64,000 bases of DNA from contig JAYUKW010000013.1 of NCBI GenBank assembly GCA_043764155.1, positions 59,683-123,682 of the forward strand, written 5' to 3'. The DNA comes from Bdellovibrionales bacterium. Its GTDB lineage: Bacteria; Bdellovibrionota; Bdellovibrionia; Bdellovibrionales; UBA1609. The position numbers and the translations under genes are program-made. Position 1 is the stretch's first letter, and each line of letters starts with the position of its first letter. Below, piece after piece: positions 1,019 to 52,996 of this stretch. A model generated the notes under the pieces. That model worked only from the letters and a program-made list of their open reading frames with translations, made no database searches and was not told where the DNA came from.

Positions 1019-3457
1019 TTAAAAATTCTCGAAGCGATTTAAATCAAGCCATCCTGTTTCGTTGGTTAGTCTGTCTGTGGTTTGCATTGAAAATTGTTTG
1101 TAGATGTCCCAGAAGTTTTTATCAGTTCTAGATATAGAATATTGTTTTAATATATTTTTAACTTTTGCTTCTGAATCAGAATTGATTAATTCATTTAAAA
1201 AAGTTTTAAATTTATCCTCGCTCAGTTCAATGAAAATATTGGCGTATGATGTAGCGATTCCTTCTATCAGGTCTAAACTGTCTTTGCTTGGATTTCGACG
1301 TTCATTTTCAAAGAATATCAATCCAACATTAAAATGATCTTTATTGTGAATTAAAGTGAAGTACTTTTCGTTGTTCTTGCTTTTGATTTTTATTAACAAC
1401 GTATCTGGTAAGTACGACACATTAATCGGTTTAATTTTTTGAATTTGCTTTTTAAAACTTAATATCTGTTTTGAATCTGAATCTGGGAACTGACCTTCAA
1501 TCTGAACTTTAGAAAATCTTTTTTGGATTTTCGTAAGATGGCTCAAGATTATTAGTTTAGATTCATCAACTTTCGAATTTGGGTTTGAGTTAAATTTAGA
1601 GATAGAAGTAAATTTTGAATCTAAATCAGATTCTTTATCTGATCCCTTTTTTAATTTAATACTTTCTATATCTTTTGAATCAATATCCATTCCTTGATAC
1701 TTGTACTCTTCAGACATTTTTTCTTGGACGTCGTTACTGACTAGATCAATTAAATGTTTAAAGACAGACTCTTTCTTTTTAGGTATTTCTTGATTCCACT
1801 CATTTCTAATTTTTATTCTATTTTCTTTAGGCAACAGAGTTAAAAACAAATCCTCTGCCGCTATACGAGAAATATCCATATATAATCTAGAATTAAGCTG
1901 ATGAAGTACAGGACCAAACACATTATATCCTGCAGTTAAATTGTAATAAATTGACTCAAAAACCTGGTAATCTAAAACCCAAAATGTCTTTGGAGCCTCA
2001 CCTTTAAAACCCCGCAACACTTGAGCGCTATCAAAGTGCCTATAGACAGTAAGTGCCGCATTCGTATTGACTTGATCCCCATTCCAAATCCAATCGGTTT
2101 CAATAGTCATATTTTTATTATTATAAAAATTAAATTTTTCTTTAACACCTGACCAATAATCTTTTTTAAATTGAACCATAGGTTTAAAATCATCTTTTAT
2201 TTCAGATGGAAAGGTCATAAGTTTTGATACTTTGCTATATGTTTCTTGGGAGTTCACCAAAGCATCATGTTTAGGATCCATAAACATAACCCAAAAGTTA
2301 TCATTAATGACATTCAAAGCCGTCTGTCCCCTACACACCGGACCCTTGATAAAGGTCATAACAAAGTAACCTGCATCTTTTAGAAAAAACCTATATCTAG
2401 AATTTGGTGGAATCATTTCAAAAGTCGTAAAAGGATTGGCCCCCGCTTTTCCATAATTTGGCATTTTTTTAAAATCTTGAGTCCATTTTGAATTCCAAAA
2501 TAAATCTTTATATTTTTCCAGCCTATCTTTAGAAAAATCAATAGGGATATGATTTTTATGAACGATAGTTTGAATCACTGGGCGAAGACGGTAATAAAAT
2601 TTAGCTTTTGGTTTATCAAAAGGGTAAACCGTTGATGTTTCAAAAATATCACCAGACTTAGTTTCAGACCTAACCATTCTAAAAAACATTTGGGGTTGGT
2701 TTTCAAAAAACACGTTCGCCAAAAAAAAGTGTTCGAAAATATAACGAGCAGAGATTTGAGCTTTAAGATCCTTAGCGTTAAGAAAGTCTTCCCATTCTAA
2801 AACCTGTTTTTTAAAGGCTGAGTGATTAAAAATTTTATTTTCAATATCTTCTGTCTTTGATTCTTTAAATTCGCCACTTTGCCATTTCTCAAAAATATTT
2901 ATTTCATAATCTGTTAACTTTGAAAATCCAAACGGCATCCGTCCTGCAGGATTTTGTTTTGCATAAGTTTTTATATTATCTTCAGCTAATGAACTGATAC
3001 AAATTCTGCTTTTTTCAGATTCATAGGCTTTTTGTTGTCCTGACTCAACGCCTTTTGGTTTTGAAATCAAATAACTCAGTATCGATTTTTTTGAATTCTT
3101 ATCATAAACATTATAGAAGCCTTTTTTTCGCCAGTCCTTTACAGTGTGAGCATCTTCATAAAGTCGTGTTGGCGCACGCCCTTCAAGCTTTGGAAAATCA
3201 TAGATATCAACTTTACTAGCTCCACGAGACAAGCCCTCGAAGCTCGTTAAGTTCAACTGGCATGGAGAATTAAAACAAGAGTGGCAGGCCACACACTTAT
3301 TATTAAATACGGGCTGGACGTCATTAGCGTAAAAATCATTTTTATCATGAAAATCAGCTATTTTTAATTTATTGCTAGTCTTAAACACTCCGTAGCAAGC
3401 ACTTAATCCTAACAAGGTCATACATGTAATTACAAAAAACAATAGTTTAGTTTTCAT
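1019..3457 (-). CDS. cti: Fatty acid cis/trans isomerase (heme c lipoprotein)
   Basis: Lipobox LSAC, CVACHSC heme motif, PCQLNL..EGLSRGASK, FIKGPVCRGQ.ALNVI and ALTVYRHFDSA typical of Cti. Confidence 0.9.
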   Translation of the reverse strand: MKTKLLFFVITCMTLLGLSACYGVFKTSNKLKIADFHDKNDFYANDVQPVFNNKCVACHSCFNSPCQLNLTSFEGLSRGASKVDIYDFPKLEGRAPTRLYEDAHTVKDWRKKGFYNVYDKNSKKSILSYLISKPKGVESGQQKAYESEKSRICISSLAEDNIKTYAKQNPAGRMPFGFSKLTDYEINIFEKWQSGEFKESKTEDIENKIFNHSAFKKQVLEWEDFLNAKDLKAQISARYIFEHFFLANVFFENQPQMFFRMVRSETKSGDIFETSTVYPFDKPKAKFYYRLRPVIQTIVHKNHIPIDFSKDRLEKYKDLFWNSKWTQDFKKMPNYGKAGANPFTTFEMIPPNSRYRFFLKDAGYFVMTFIKGPVCRGQTALNVINDNFWVMFMDPKHDALVNSQETYSKVSKLMTFPSEIKDDFKPMVQFKKDYWSGVKEKFNFYNNKNMTIETDWIWNGDQVNTNAALTVYRHFDSAQVLRGFKGEAPKTFWVLDYQVFESIYYNLTAGYNVFGPVLHQLNSRLYMDISRIAAEDLFLTLLPKENRIKIRNEWNQEIPKKKESVFKHLIDLVSNDVQEKMSEEYKYQGMDIDSKDIESIKLKKGSDKESDLDSKFTSISKFNSNPNSKVDESKLIILSHLTKIQKRFSKVQIEGQFPDSDSKQILSFKKQIQKIKPINVSYLPDTLLIKIKSKNNEKYFTLIHNKDHFNVGLIFFENERRNPSKDSLDLIEGIATSYANIFIELSEDKFKTFLNELINSDSEAKVKNILKQYSISRTDKNFWDIYKQFSMQTTDRLTNETGWLDLNRFENF

Positions 3458-7343: not shown

Positions 7344-7374
7344 ACCACCGCTACGGTGGTATAAAACTAAGCAT
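7344..7374 (-). repeat. HNH-associated hairpin motif (family A), copy 1
   Basis: + strand ACCACCG-CTA-CGGTGGT-ATAAAA-CTAA-GCAT, perfect 7-bp stem. Confidence 0.85.
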
Positions 7375-28966: not shown

Positions 28967-28997
28967 ATACCTACTTTTATACCTCCGTTACGGAGGT
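28967..28997 (+). repeat. Family A motif, copy 2 (may double as gspD terminator)
   Basis: ATAC-CTAC-TTTTAT-ACCTCCG-TTA-CGGAGGT, perfect stem followed by a T run. Confidence 0.85.
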
Positions 28998-29313
28998 TTT
29001 TAAAGTGAGTCTTACGTTTTATTGGTGCTAAACAAATTGAATCTCGACTGAAAAGTGGCTTTAGGGTGACTAAGCCTAGATTTTGGATGTGAAATCTAAG
29101 TTTGAAGCCAGAATTTGATTTTGAACCAGAGAGCTAAAACTGACAATTTTTGTAATCTTACAACCCTAAATTTGTCCTTTTTGATTTGTCGTTGTTACTT
29201 TTAAATGTGTCTTTGTGAGTTTAATTGGAGTTAAAAAATTTGGTTATAATTAATCATTTAATTTACCAATTTGGCATATAAAATGCTTTATCGTAAAAGC
29301 TTGGAGATTTATC

Positions 29314-30471
29314 ATGAAAAAAATCTTAACTCATTGTTCGTTTTTAATCTTATTTGCTTTGCTAAACTTTAGTCATTTCACAAATGCAAATTCTCAATCC
29401 TGTAGCGTGTTTTTAATGAATCACACGATGAATCATACATTGTTATCAACTTTAAATAAACTAGCTCTAGACTTTTCGATTCGGAAAGAAGCACTTCTTT
29501 CTTATATTGAGAAAGCTAAAGGAAGAATAACTTCACAAGAATTTTTTAGCTTTTTTAACACTTTTACTTCAATCGAACAGATGAAAATCGCAGAAGAATT
29601 ATTGGATTGGCCTCATGACCGAGGAAAAGGCTGGGGCGGCTGGGAGAATTACCAGGCTATCTTTTTAAGATCAGTCAGTCAGATTTTAGTTACTGGGACA
29701 GAAAAAGAATTGTTAGCTATACTTAAAGGGCCAATGGGAAAAGTTCTATACACAGACCCAGGAGACTATAATAGCTCTTCTACAAGAGCCGCTTATGATA
29801 AACGCCGTTACAACTCGTCAAACTTACCTCTAGGATCTCAGTCTGAAGGATTCACAACATTAATGTATGCCTCTCAAAAAGGTTATCTCAATGTTGTAAA
29901 ACTTTTAGTCGAAGAATTTAAAGTAAATATTAATCTTATAAAACCCATACACAATTATGGACTTCAACCAAACACTGCTCTTAGCTACGCTATATTTTTC
30001 AATAAAGATAATCAAAATGACCAAGTTATATCTTACCTCTTAAAAATGGGAGCCAATTTGAGTTCTCAAAATACTTACTACCCAGGTCCTCTTTATTATG
30101 CCGCCGCAATTGATGATGTAGAGATGCTTAAATTATTGTTAGAATATGGTGCTGACATAAATGATCAGACAAAAATTCATGAAACAGCGCTTTTTGCAGT
30201 AGCAAAATATGGTCAAACCAACGCTGCAAAGTTTTTACTTGAAGCTGGAATTGATTATAACGCAAGACTTGTGGAATTGGAAAAAAATGATTTTGGAAAG
30301 ACAGTAGAAGTTGATCGCTTATTTAAAGACACAGCTTCAGCTGTGGCAAAGCAAGGTGGCTATATTGAAGTTGCAGACTTAATTCTTGAATTCGATAAAG
30401 CTTCTAAGGGAAAAACTTATAATCCATCTAAATTTCCAGATCGAATTTGGAGATTCTTTAAAACCTTATAA
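29314..30471 (+). CDS. Secreted ankyrin-repeat protein
   Basis: Signal peptide. Ankyrin repeats GFTTLMYASQKGYLNVVKLL, PLYYAA..D.EMLKLLLEYGADIN, ETALFAV..G..AAKFLLEAGID. Confidence 0.9.
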   Translation: MKKILTHCSFLILFALLNFSHFTNANSQSCSVFLMNHTMNHTLLSTLNKLALDFSIRKEALLSYIEKAKGRITSQEFFSFFNTFTSIEQMKIAEELLDWPHDRGKGWGGWENYQAIFLRSVSQILVTGTEKELLAILKGPMGKVLYTDPGDYNSSSTRAAYDKRRYNSSNLPLGSQSEGFTTLMYASQKGYLNVVKLLVEEFKVNINLIKPIHNYGLQPNTALSYAIFFNKDNQNDQVISYLLKMGANLSSQNTYYPGPLYYAAAIDDVEMLKLLLEYGADINDQTKIHETALFAVAKYGQTNAAKFLLEAGIDYNARLVELEKNDFGKTVEVDRLFKDTASAVAKQGGYIEVADLILEFDKASKGKTYNPSKFPDRIWRFFKTL

Positions 30472-30911
30472 ATTTATAATTAAGTGGGAATTTCTAATCT
30501 ATAATTTTTTTCAAACCCAATTAGAATTTGAAACTAGAATTCAGTTGGTCATCTTTCTTAAAGGGCGAATTTGCGCCTAGCCAAAACCCCTTGATTTTAG
30601 CATAGAAAATCATCCTTCTTTTGTGTTTTTTTGTATCAGTCAAAAGACACAAACTAAAAATTTAGAAATACTTTAAATTTCTAGTTTTTAATCAAATTTT
30701 ATAAAAAGTTTAAAGCATTTTTTCAATAAAATATTTGAATTTATTAAAAAAATAAATACATCAGAAAGTATTTATTTTTTTCCACAGAAATAACACGTTC
30801 GAAATAAATAATTTTTTTCCAATGATTTTTATTTATCATCGCACCATTAATTTATTGTTTATAAAGACTTCAAGTCATTATTTAATATTGCATAAGTAAA
30901 ATTCTTAAACA

Positions 30912-30942
30912 TAGCTTAAATTTATACCACCGTAATGGAGGT
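30912..30942 (+). repeat. Family A motif, copy 3
   Basis: TAGC-TTAA-ATTTAT-ACCACCG-TAA-TGGAGGT. 30921-30946 is the exact reverse complement of 37509-37534. Confidence 0.9.
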
Positions 30943-31369
30943 TAATTTTGACCTTTTGTGTTTAAAAAAGTCTTAAAGCTAATATTTGTTTCGCCGTGAT
31001 ATAAAATTTCGATTCATACTTTTTCATATTTAAAAAACTAATTTTGATTTTAGTTATTTATCAAAATACGAACCCCTATGGTTGTTTTTCTTATTTGTTT
31101 TTCTTATTTATTTTTCATTGGATTAAGACTTCAATTTAATTAGGGTACCAGGAACAGGTTCAATCTTAAATGAATGAATGAATTATTAATTATTTTTATA
31201 TTTACAAAAAAACTGTCCGAAATAAATATTATTATACCAATAATAATTATTTAATATTGCATCATTGGTTTATTTAAAACCTATTACTTGTTATGTTGTT
31301 TTTACTAAACAAAGATTTTTAAATTTAATATTTTTTCACAACATTTGAATTAAATATTATATAAGGATT

Positions 31370-32683
31370 ATGATTATGAACTTTAATCAAATAAGTAAAA
31401 ATCCCAAATCAAATAAAATGCTAAATGAAATCTTAAGCGATAATTTAAATTGCAATTCTGCATTTGTTAACAAATCAAATAATCCATCTGATTTAAATCT
31501 AAAGAAAAACCACAGTTCCTTCACTACTTCAGATAAAATTTCGAATCCAAAACTGGCTAACAGAATATTAATTCGTGAGCATACAAACACAAGTCTGCAC
31601 GAACGATTAAAATATTTAGTTTTATCAGAAAGAAAATTACTAACGACAATTATTGATTACTTGGCAGAAGTTAAACGTAGACGACTTTACGCAGAGCTAG
31701 GTTATAGCTCTTTATTTAACTATTGTGTTAAGGAATTAGGTTATTCTGAATCGGCGACACTAAGAAGACTAAATGCCATTAAACTTGTTTCCGAATGTCC
31801 TGAAATTAAAGAAAAATTAAAATCTGGAGTTTTAAACTTAACGACAGTGTCTATGGCCCAAACATTTTTTCAAAAAGAGAAGAATTTATTCCAAAAAAAT
31901 AATTTATATTTAAATCCTGATTCGAGGTTACAAACGCAAGTGAATTTAAATTTTGGAATCAATGATAATAATTCAATCGACAGATCAAGTGTAAATGCGA
32001 ACTCAAATTCGTTCTTGACTAAAAACAACACAAATTCAAGCATCACAAATCTAGCCCAAAGAACTTCAATTTTTAACTCCCCTGCCGCTAAAATTAATTT
32101 TCTAGAAACCTTAGAGAACAAAACGATTCAACAAGTTCAAAATGAATTCGTCAAAATTTCACCATATGTAGCCAAATTCAATGAACAGCAAAAGCCCCTT
32201 ACCGAAAATCTTACGGAATTAAAAATTACTCTTAATAAAACCCAACTTCAAAAATTAAAGCGTTTGAAAGAACTTAGACCTGATTTTAAATCCACCGCTG
32301 AACTTCTAGAATGGTCCCTGGACCAAAGTTTAAAAAAATTGGATCCATTAATAAATGCTCAAGTTCATACCACCGTAACGGAGGTCATAACGACAACCTC
32401 AAACCCTGTTAATCCGAATTCAAAATCTAAACCCAGTCTATTAAATAAAAAAATCTCTTTAAAATCTCATGTTCATCTTAAATCTAATAGCCAGTGTAGT
32501 TTTGTTTCCGAATCAGGTCAAAAATGTCTTGAAACCTATGGCCTTGAGGTTGATCACATTCATCCAAAAGCCAAAGGCGGATCGAATAGTCCAAACAATT
32601 TGCGACTACTTTGCAAAGCCCATAATCAGTTTGAAGCCGTAAAACATTTTGGAGCTAAACAAATGGGATTTTATTTGAAATAA
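31370..32683 (+). CDS. HNH endonuclease with DUF222-like N-terminal domain
   Basis: N-terminal ER..L.EV..RRLYAELGYSSLFNYCVKELGYSE..RR. C-terminal C...C..LEVDHIHPKAKGGSNSPNNLRLLCKAHN. Confidence 0.88.
   Translation: MIMNFNQISKNPKSNKMLNEILSDNLNCNSAFVNKSNNPSDLNLKKNHSSFTTSDKISNPKLANRILIREHTNTSLHERLKYLVLSERKLLTTIIDYLAEVKRRRLYAELGYSSLFNYCVKELGYSESATLRRLNAIKLVSECPEIKEKLKSGVLNLTTVSMAQTFFQKEKNLFQKNNLYLNPDSRLQTQVNLNFGINDNNSIDRSSVNANSNSFLTKNNTNSSITNLAQRTSIFNSPAAKINFLETLENKTIQQVQNEFVKISPYVAKFNEQQKPLTENLTELKITLNKTQLQKLKRLKELRPDFKSTAELLEWSLDQSLKKLDPLINAQVHTTVTEVITTTSNPVNPNSKSKPSLLNKKISLKSHVHLKSNSQCSFVSESGQKCLETYGLEVDHIHPKAKGGSNSPNNLRLLCKAHNQFEAVKHFGAKQMGFYLK
32355..32385 (+). repeat. Family A motif, copy 4, in-frame within the HNH gene
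   Basis: ATGC-TCAA-GTTCAT-ACCACCG-TAA-CGGAGGT, encoding NAQVHTTVTEV. Confidence 0.85.
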
Positions 32684-35899: not shown

Positions 35900-35913
35900 G
35901 CTCACCGCAGGTG

Positions 35914-35985
35914 GAAAAGTTCCAGCGAGTTGGCAGAGGGTGCGAAGCCCCTCGAAAAGCCAACGAGTGAACTAGACAGCAAAAG
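35914..35985 (+). repeat. Family B nested-hairpin element (GCGAAGC core)
   Basis: GAAAAGTTCCAGCGAGTTGGCAGAGGGTGCGAAGCCCCTCGAAAAGCCAACGAGTGAACTAGACAGCAAAAG. Confidence 0.9.
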
Positions 35986-36527: not shown

Positions 36528-36638
36528 GAAAAATTCCAGCGAAGGCTTGCGAGGGTGCGAAGCCCCTCGTCAGCAAGCCGAGTGAACTAGACAGGGTAGC
36601 TGGAAAAGCGCAAGCGAAGCGCGCTAGACAGCAAAAGG
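36528..36638 (+). repeat. Family B elements (one full, one minimal)
   Basis: 36528-36593 full copy with GGCTTGC/GCAAGCC stem. 36602-36638 GGAAAAGCGCAAGCGAAGCGCGCTAGACAGCAAAAGG. Confidence 0.88.
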
Positions 36639-36646
36639 AATACTTT

Positions 36647-37486
36647 ATGCGTTTAGTTTTTTTTATATTTATTTTTTGTTGGTTAAATCCCAGTTTACTA
36701 TTCGCCAATCCAAATACAAAAAACTTAGTTGAGCCTTTAAAAAAAACAAATCCAGTTCAAGCTGAAAAAGTTTTACAACCACAAAATGTCGAAGTGAAAT
36801 TAAATCAGAACAGTTATGTTGAAAAAATAAATAATGGTTTTAAAAAAACTATTGCAATAGGTAAAAAGGGATTCTCACAAATAAATTCAATTCAAATGCT
36901 TACAGCTCAACGACGAGCAAAAAGACCACACAATATTATGGCATCCTACACTGGAGTTGCAACCTGGATTCCAAGTAAAATAGGACTAAGCTATACTTAC
37001 AGTCCAACGGCTATTGGAAGTTGGGAGCTTTCCTATTCCAGAGGTAAAATTTCTGCCCCATTTTTTATTTCAGATATAGGAACTGTTTCTGATTCGCATT
37101 TATCTTTACTGTACAGATCATATTCAAGAAGAAATACTTTTGCTGTTATTTATGGTCTTAATTATTATAAGTTTGATGCTCATCTGAGTAGTGAATTTCT
37201 GTCTTCAATTTCTAGTGGACCAGTATCAGATTACAATATACTTGCCGTTGAATCATTGGGTGCAACCATCGGATTTGGAAATCGCTGGCAATTAAAAAAT
37301 GGAATGTCCCTTGGGGTGGATTGGTTTCAATTAAACATTCCTCTTCATGTCTTTAAAACAGAAGCTAATTACTTATCTTCAAATGCAGATCCAGAAGACA
37401 AAAAAGATATAGAAAATGTATTAGATATTTTAAAACGAGTACCTACATTTTCGTTTTTGAAGCTCCAAGCTGGCTATACATTCTGA
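36647..37486 (+). CDS. Putative outer-membrane beta-barrel protein inserted in the T2SS operon
   Basis: Signal peptide, amphipathic beta strands, C-terminal AGYTF. Confidence 0.7.
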   Translation: MRLVFFIFIFCWLNPSLLFANPNTKNLVEPLKKTNPVQAEKVLQPQNVEVKLNQNSYVEKINNGFKKTIAIGKKGFSQINSIQMLTAQRRAKRPHNIMASYTGVATWIPSKIGLSYTYSPTAIGSWELSYSRGKISAPFFISDIGTVSDSHLSLLYRSYSRRNTFAVIYGLNYYKFDAHLSSEFLSSISSGPVSDYNILAVESLGATIGFGNRWQLKNGMSLGVDWFQLNIPLHVFKTEANYLSSNADPEDKKDIENVLDILKRVPTFSFLKLQAGYTF

Positions 37487-37512: not shown

Positions 37513-37543
37513 ACCTCCATTACGGTGGTATAAAAACAAGCAA
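37513..37543 (-). repeat. Family A motif, copy 5
   Basis: + strand ACCTCCA-TTA-CGGTGGT-ATAAAA-ACAA-GCAA. Confidence 0.9.
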
Positions 37544-49152: not shown

Positions 49153-49183
49153 ACATTCGTTACGGTGGTATAAAAACGGGCAT
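49153..49183 (-). repeat. Family A motif, copy 6 (one arm degenerate)
   Basis: + strand ACATTCG-TTA-CGGTGGT-ATAAAA-ACGG-GCAT. Confidence 0.8.
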
Positions 49184-52822: not shown

Positions 52823-52996
52823 TTGCTGTCTAGTTCACTTGCTGGAACTTTTCCTGCTGCTGTCTAGTTCACTCTCTGGCTTTTGGAGGGGCTTCGCACC
52901 CTCCGCCAGCTCGTTGGAACTTTTCTTTTACTGTCTAGTTCACTCTCTGGCTTTTGGAGGGGCTTCGCACCCTCCGCCAGCTCGCTGGAACTTTTC
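52823..52996 (-). repeat. Tandem family B cluster (one minimal + two near-identical full copies)
   Basis: Units at ~52823-52853, 52858-52925 and 52931-52996, reverse complements of the 35914 element type. Confidence 0.92.

Follow-up and report, generated by a model that had tools for sequence, protein, structure and literature searches.

A nuclease gene in the genome of a Bdellovibrionales bacterium was found to carry, within its own reading frame, a 31-bp word that is dispersed through the intergenic spacers of the same genome. The gene lies in a stretch of 64,000 nucleotides, hereafter the window (GenBank assembly GCA_043764155.1, contig JAYUKW010000013.1), which is C13:59683-123682 of the genome we refer to as G000 (assembly of 2.73 Mb, 35% GC). 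Handles beginning with C and L denote contigs and loci, and G001, G002, G003 and G004 are congeners of G000, the first three being 97-99% complete. The word occupies 16 places in the assembly, clusters around the gene and is restricted to genomes with a counterpart of the gene, the same kind of pairing recurs elsewhere, and the protein combines DUF222-like, ribbon-helix-helix (RHH) and HNH domains. As the word is in the gene and clustered around it, and homologues have words of their own, the enzyme likely binds the word and probably spreads it locally. Judging from the sequences, it is highly probable that the word is the cognate double-stranded DNA site of the protein. For the overall reading, in which this duplex site would be seeded in cis by nick-initiated templated copying, we estimate a probability of about 0.55.

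The first-pass annotation of the window had listed six copies of the word, and all six were re-found at the coordinates and on the strands it gave (Table 1). The 26 bases it had counted as identical between the copies at 30912 and 37513 also agreed when the two were read by eye. The genome-wide scan which it had proposed, made with a matrix of the six copies, produced 23 strand matches at 16 distinct places in the G000 assembly and none in three block shuffles, placing the word above background. A matrix of the left half alone recovered exactly these 16 places, each scoring at least 24 bits, with the next match at 19. The 15 copies outside the gene were all intergenic, though the assembly is approximately 89% coding. 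Eight of these 15 lay within 51 kb of the HNH gene, a region that represents 4% of the assembly (binomial P 3.5e-8), and the contig of a ninth, C24, maps approximately 135 kb from the gene by synteny with G004. The copies were singlets with no inverted doublets, the closest two being 1.1 kb apart in direct orientation, and they formed small subfamilies with 31-32 of 36 positions identical. Many were just downstream of genes, several of them 23-60 bp after a stop codon. Based on crude open reading frame (ORF) calls for C13, every word-bearing spacer (8/8) borders a gene absent from G004, versus 29 of 49 spacers, and seven of the eight are junctions of core and accessory genes, versus 16 of 49.

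Alignment of the 16 G000 copies indicated that the word has the anatomy TGCYT-N3-TTTATACCWCCG, three free bases, and CGGWGG(T), with conserved blocks interleaved with free positions. The left half is strongly conserved and its outer TGC box is one helical turn from the inner box; the right half is looser. The 7-bp stem and 3-nt loop described previously survive as an inner 7-3-7 dyad, but the stem is imperfect in most copies, including that in the gene. Similarly, the outer TGC flank is one-sided in most copies, as had been claimed, except that four mirror it on the right, two in register (C33:37142 and C17:29564), one with a single mismatch (C13:129902) and one a base off (C24:24518). The proposal of compensatory change in the stem did not survive. 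Position 4 of the stem is A-T in six copies, T-A in three and unpaired in seven, with A.A in the gene copy and five others and T.T in none. Each of the A-T and T-A stems can be reached from A.A by a single change; there has thus been no two-sided compensatory change, and the variants would fit one-step symmetrisation with the A.A of the gene copy as the starting state. In addition, the gene copy (-3.7 kcal/mol, z -0.9) and three of the five other window copies fold no better than shuffled sequences (z -0.4 to -0.9). Based on the stem counts and the shuffle-level folding of these four of six copies, the compensatory-hairpin reading was rejected; the word looks like a duplex binding site rather than a hairpin. 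In L367, L370, L371, L333 (G328), L007, L106 and L278, the dyad is accompanied by an outer TGAYGC box whose distance from it is fixed and lineage-specific, echoing the outer TGC box of G000.

The in-frame copy had been placed ahead of the nuclease domain, which proved correct: it encodes N-A-Q-V-H-T-T-V-T-E-V, in the linker between the RHH and the HNH domain. The peptide of the left half, AQ[SN]YTT, is kept in all four other close homologues seen, although its place shifts among them and the linker is otherwise unalignable; the three intact close homologues form one clade with the G000 protein in a quick tree. The HNH domain has the conserved C/D-H/N/C-H-N residues of the family and was the only Pfam match of the protein (PF01844, E 1.9e-8, over the cut-off). 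The DUF222-like label of the first-pass annotation holds through homologues, 23 of 119 of which match PF02720 at E<=0.01 (best E 3.1e-6; Atlas neighbors have DUF222 in 12-21% of members), and not through the protein itself, which has no match. The structure model, with a predicted local distance difference test (pLDDT) score of 81, has a helical N-terminal domain, an RHH, a low-confidence linker and an HNH domain. Its RHH, at residues 277-322, resembles that of NikR (Z 5.7, root-mean-square deviation (rmsd) 1.4, 43 residues aligned), with many further RHH proteins among the matches, and its HNH domain, at 360-430, resembles those of IscB (Z 6.2) and GVE2 (Z 5.9). When the N-terminal domain was folded alone, KorB, ParB, Spo0J, SopB, Noc and VirB recurred weakly amid unrelated matches, with Z scores of 5.9 for KorB (99 aligned, rmsd 3.3), 5.8 for ParB and 4.9 for Spo0J. 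Comparison of this domain with 24 ParB domains of Bdellovibrionota by hhalign gave a score of 29.8, versus at most 16.5 in 30 column shuffles, at a probability of 29%. Searches of Rfam, PADLOC and PDB sequences gave no useful match, and there was no Rfam match in the window.

Table 1. Copies of the word and associated features, numbered from the first nucleotide of the window.
Feature	Position	Strand	Remarks
Word copy	7344-7374	(-)	Intergenic; about 30 bp inside left edge of 1.76-kb insert upstream of thrS; G003 is without the insert
Word copy	28967-28997	(+)	Intergenic; directly after gspD; in direct orientation with the copy at 30912, the two bracketing the ankyrin gene
Word copy	30912-30942	(+)	Intergenic; about 430 bp before HNH gene start codon; matched in position by a G004 copy
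Word copy	32355-32385	(+)	Inside HNH gene, in frame
Word copy	37513-37543	(-)	Intergenic; right edge of one-gene insert 36647-37486 between gspG and gspH
Word copy	49153-49183	(-)	Intergenic; right arm decayed; between two genes absent from syntenic G004 region
Family nuclease gene	31370-32683	(+)	437 aa; N-terminal helical domain (DUF222-like, weakly resembling ParB/KorB), then RHH, low-confidence linker and HNH
Upstream block common with G004	31209-31278	(+)	75% over 71 nt; likely a promoter region or the left end of an element
Ankyrin-repeat accessory gene	29314-30471	(+)	Between two same-orientation word copies

Within the genus, the word tracked the gene. The exact left-half pattern had more than one match in only two of 109 family genomes, G000 (12) and G004 (2); it had none in G001-G003, and seven others had a single match each, the level of the reversed control. 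G004 is the sole congener with a counterpart of the gene, which is broken, 52-63% identical and at the same gspD-gspE site, and its three word copies are in the linker, approximately 460 bp upstream and at one further place. The loop begins with A in these three copies, versus T in 13 of the 16 G000 copies. An expansion of approximately 50 tandem 7-bp units lies between the upstream word and the broken gene in G004 (L016:160-510). G040, a genome with 32 family matches, has two sites that nearly match the G000 pattern (L032 and L035, on G040:C2); they lie 38 kb apart and are possibly another word of this kind.

The co-variation anticipated by the first-pass annotation was also found, as a paralogue in G002 has a different word in its linker, upstream and clustered around the gene. 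Allowing one mismatch, this word has seven places in G002 and none in G000, G001, G003 or G004. With two mismatches, the 140 kb examined contained nine copies: two in linkers, two upstream and five within 29 kb of a carrier gene. At least approximately 170 kb separates this cluster from the gsp operon, so that clustering goes with the gene and not with a position on the chromosome. Three G002-word copies with a 65-68 bp spacing and unrelated spacers were noted 5 kb upstream of the gene (L361:13860-14030).

This turnover bears on whether the word might be a feature of the host, namely the site of a host transcription factor, a parS site, a sigma-54 promoter or a terminator. The copies 23-60 bp past stop codons and the T run after the copy at 28967 would suit a terminator; regional clustering is typical of parS; and the mycobacterial 13E12 genes are LexA-bound (PMC3381160). 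However, the site of a host factor would be expected to be retained across congeners, and the G000 word was not found in G001-G003, a turnover that contradicts a host feature; in G002 it is the gene that the cluster follows. On C12 of G000, a canonical parS pair adjoins parB at the skew minimum, away from the cluster, the GG-to-GC spacing of the word is 11 and not the 10 of sigma-54, and the in-gene copy has no T tail. A scan for promoters and terminators gave background levels. We consider a host feature scarcely credible as an explanation.

Pairs of gene and word recurred with their own words in G019, G317, G328 and G180. The G019-type word, the third, has nine places in G019, all on two contigs with carrier genes, and was found exactly in nine of 384 genomes of the order, in a family linker in seven of the nine; for G052, G085 and G180 the word was found first and the linker-bearing gene checked afterwards. 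Short arrays of the same word, with periods of approximately 157 bp and 70 bp, were seen in L299 (G235) and L301 (G017), with no family gene in the locus. A further word common to G317, G328 and G017 occurs in linkers, upstream, downstream and elsewhere. Signs of copying were seen in G317, where upstream copies have 42-44 bp in common with paralogue linkers at 89-90% and where word-bearing units of 144-170 bp form tandem repeats next to the gene, as well as in the subfamilies of the G000 copies.

Among 99 non-redundant genes, 17 had a match to their own linker word in the 800 bp upstream, or 14 of 96 after L136 and L117 (slicing artefacts) and L119 (a tandem gene fragment) were dropped; three N-terminal control rows scoring at least 30 were assumed to be these dropped rows. 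Controls gave 1/94 downstream, 0/89 farther upstream and 7/297 for the flanks of other genes, and a separate comparison was in accord. The words are lineage-specific, and 12 of the 14 linker-upstream pairs are dyads of the G000 kind. Scored simply as palindromes, linkers were indistinguishable from N-terminal controls (31 vs 30 of 94), and linker words were not enriched in pooled flanks of 8-425 kb from approximately 27 genomes, dispersal being visible only in whole-genome searches. Two other lines were set aside: the relation of recognition-helix sequence to word type was confounded with phylogeny in a quick tree, and 12 pattern matches in viral contigs, where there was no family gene, were read as chance because none has a full right arm.

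The interleaved blocks and free positions of the word are the pattern of a protein-binding site, and RHH and helix-turn-helix (HTH) folds are typical of repressors. The protein might thus act only to repress its own gene through upstream and intragenic operators with looping, with the extragenic copies arising by ordinary duplication or conversion and being kept where binding regulates accessory genes, and with the nuclease uninvolved in their spread. The accessory genes beside all word-bearing C13 spacers are consistent with this, as is a linker-like dyad that abuts the -35 box upstream of a family gene in a Spirochaetia genome. A precedent is I-TevI, for which PMC2988022 describes autorepression through a site in the enzyme's own DNA. 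We nevertheless regard an operator-only role as rather unlikely: upstream copies have no fixed distance (approximately -50 to -1500 bp) or orientation, many copies are just downstream of genes, and a regulon is not expected to thin with distance from its regulator or to be rebuilt with a new word for each paralogue. Operator function may coexist with seeding, by analogy with I-TevI.

The occurrence of the word on both sides of some genes (in G317, G019, G328 and G017), and of two G000 accessory genes between direct copies (the ankyrin gene and C13:41747-42670), raised the question of whether each extragenic copy is the scar of a past local hop of a whole site-gene-site element, lost by recombination between its sites and sometimes leaving cargo. 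That the family is multi-copy and mobile would agree with such hops. Against them, there are no gene remnants beside the dispersed G000 copies, no copy is found close downstream of the G000 gene, and the homology of paralogues begins 90-360 bp inside the upstream word and not at the word. Scars therefore seem a quite improbable source of the copies.

It was also considered that the word is a repetitive extragenic palindrome (REP) or a miniature inverted-repeat transposable element (MITE) of another enzyme, such as a Y1/RAYT transposase, which had landed in a permissive linker. G000 has five Y1-family genes, two of them on C13; the L073 linker holds a seemingly foreign repeat; and in G180, which has one carrier gene and 20 other places of the G019-type word, 20 of the 21 copies are away from listed family genes. 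Yet, allowing up to three mismatches, no copy is within 2.5 kb of any of the five Y1 genes, whereas REPs adjoin RAYT genes (PMC3116915). The copies are moreover singlets with weak hairpins, and independent words occupy the same linker and upstream positions in several lineages. Together, these data largely refuted an origin from a foreign repeat, which we hold to be very improbable.

Ribbon-helix-helix proteins are dimers. In the mechanism we favor, seeding in cis, a dimer of the protein would read the inner 7-3-7 dyad together with the outer TGCY box one helical turn away, with the ParB-like HTH and the RHH as candidate readers. The HNH domain, on its flexible tether, would nick near the bound site, and templated repair from the linker or a neighboring copy would either write tracts of approximately 16-45 bp into spacers nearby or produce tandem duplications of them. 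A preference for action in cis would lead to the cluster around the gene. The linker and upstream copies might also throttle the expression of the gene itself, like the I-TevI operator, and the whole gene, in its rarer moves, could use extragenic copies as landing pads.

Several findings weigh against this mechanism. The gene copy in G000 is no nearer in sequence to close copies than to distant ones (24-27 of 36 positions) and deviates from the extragenic consensus at conserved T positions, which indicates that the copies are not fresh prints of the present-day gene. Neither an exact insertion junction nor a duplicated target could be recognized at gspD, gspG-H, thrS, spoT, dnaX or asnS, where the words sit in variable spacers and the congeners are too diverged for base-level junctions. 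A linker-upstream pair was absent from 82 of the 96 sampled genes and from the five other long G000 paralogues, and thus is not required for multiplication of the family. G001 and G003 hold family genes without the G000 word, and G017 and G122 have no linker copy of the G019-type word in the loci read. Among the pairs, L145 is not a dyad and the L073 linker word is one which we take to be a foreign REP-type repeat that entered the linker. The likeness to ParB is weak (Z at most 5.9 amid unrelated matches, Foldseek E at least 1.9, hhalign 29%). Lastly, the sampled genomes are kin and the counts are not independent.

The pairing was compared with known systems. The DUF222-HNH/REP13E12 group (PF02720 + PF01844) likewise consists of multi-copy genes with a helical domain and an HNH domain, of unknown mechanism, but the G000 protein has no DUF222 match and its branch has an RHH domain. 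In the portions available, the 13E12 genes are described as repeated elements, LexA-bound and hot spots of recombination (PMC3381160, PMC13157036), with no mention there of a cognate palindrome in or around them, and REP13E12/HNH/DUF222 is named as repetitive in PMC10589994. Our literature search, in which supplements were outside the scope and subscription journals were mostly uncovered, found no paper on a cognate palindrome for the DUF222-HNH family.

RAYT-REP systems similarly have a nuclease gene with a lineage-specific short palindrome that adjoins it and is dispersed intergenically, and their REPINs adjoin RAYT genes and form doublets (PMC3116915). The G000 system differs in that the enzyme is HNH and not HUH/Y1, the word is inside coding sequence, is a singlet with a weak hairpin and has 16 copies strongly clustered in cis, and the gene family is multi-copy. 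The first-pass annotation had proposed an HNH-driven analogue of REP/RAYT; its link of gene and word was borne out by tracking within the genus, the words of paralogues and clustering, and its REP-like single-stranded hairpin with compensatory changes was not. I-TevI also has a DNA-binding module tethered to a nuclease by a linker. Compared with it and with free-standing HNH homing endonucleases, G000 has no intron or allelic homing site, and has a dyad, many non-allelic copies and a second copy in the ORF. ParB-parS, KorB-OB and Noc-NBS are similar in their 16-17-bp dyad sites and in that the N-terminal domain is weakly like theirs by structure and by profile; unlike ParB, the G000 protein is fused to RHH and HNH domains, has no CTPase domain (Pfam) and no parA partner (its neighbors are gsp genes), and the host parB/parS are elsewhere, on C12. 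The HNH domain resembles that of IscB/HEARO (NF040563, E 2.8e-7, 30 bits versus a cut-off of 175; Z 6.2), but the match covers the HNH stretch only, with no full-length IscB match (PLMP, RuvC), and the Rfam search of the window gave no omega RNA.

The HNH and ankyrin genes interrupt a type II secretion operon, with gspD on one side and gspE on the other (the names of gsp and other core genes were read from the sequences). The genes gspD and gspE are adjacent, with no cargo, in G001, and have differing cargo in G003, G004 and G000; the ankyrin gene has no counterpart at this site in G001, G004 or the assembled contig ends of G003. Similarly, gspG and gspH, which are separated by a one-gene insert in G000, are adjacent in G001, G003 and G004. 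Directly after gspD, where G000 has the word, G003 carries its own long inverted-repeat element (L217, G003:C46:1-978). Upstream of the ankyrin gene, at 29271-29287, is what, judged by the consensus, we take to be a sigma-54-like -24/-12 box (GG-N10-GC). A stretch of approximately 19 kb (C13:43800-63100, ending at window position 3457) that includes a his operon, between the rpmI/rplT and infC regions, is almost without counterpart in the syntenic stretch of G004. A second, unrelated REP-like repeat with the core GGGTGCGAAGCCCC was observed at 35906-35981, 36535-36600 and 52850-52991 of the window; the core has 17 matches in G000, dozens of related copies in G003 and a few in G001, and is not beside the five Y1 genes of G000.

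Bdellovibrionota and other phyla have DUF222-like HNH genes in as many as dozens of copies, and to our knowledge nobody has shown by what route they spread or what they bind. G000 has nine family loci, including fragments, and the family was found in 24 of 41 relatives, with up to 50 matches each; a single-protein scan of the genome contigs gave no match. Paralogues have common upstream blocks of approximately 200 bp or more. In Spirochaetia genomes (L134-L170), at least 20 family copies were found in OZ241863.1 and at least seven in OZ241907.1. Many of the OZ241863.1 genes are bounded by inverted ends finishing in TTGGAARTGCGCC, and one Spirochaetia gene read closely has six linker dyads in addition to the dyad at its -35 box.

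The pairing of word and gene is real, gene-linked and of the nuclease-plus-cognate-repeat kind, not RAYT, and is apparently undescribed. We tentatively suggest, as a possibility short of an even chance, that it may represent a separate class of selfish element, namely a nickase of HTH-RHH-HNH architecture whose reading frame contains its own recognition word and which prints 16-45-bp copies into adjoining intergenic DNA in cis with no transposase, recombinase or RNA guide, the copies being landing pads for the element itself and hot spots of accessory-gene turnover, and each paralogue lineage evolving its own word. There is now a named substrate for a named protein and a natural specificity swap within one genus (the G000 word versus the G002 word), making binding and nicking directly testable. 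If seeding is true, REP-like repeats would have a second origin in addition to RAYT, and the family would supply compact, sequence-specific nickases in many natural specificities.

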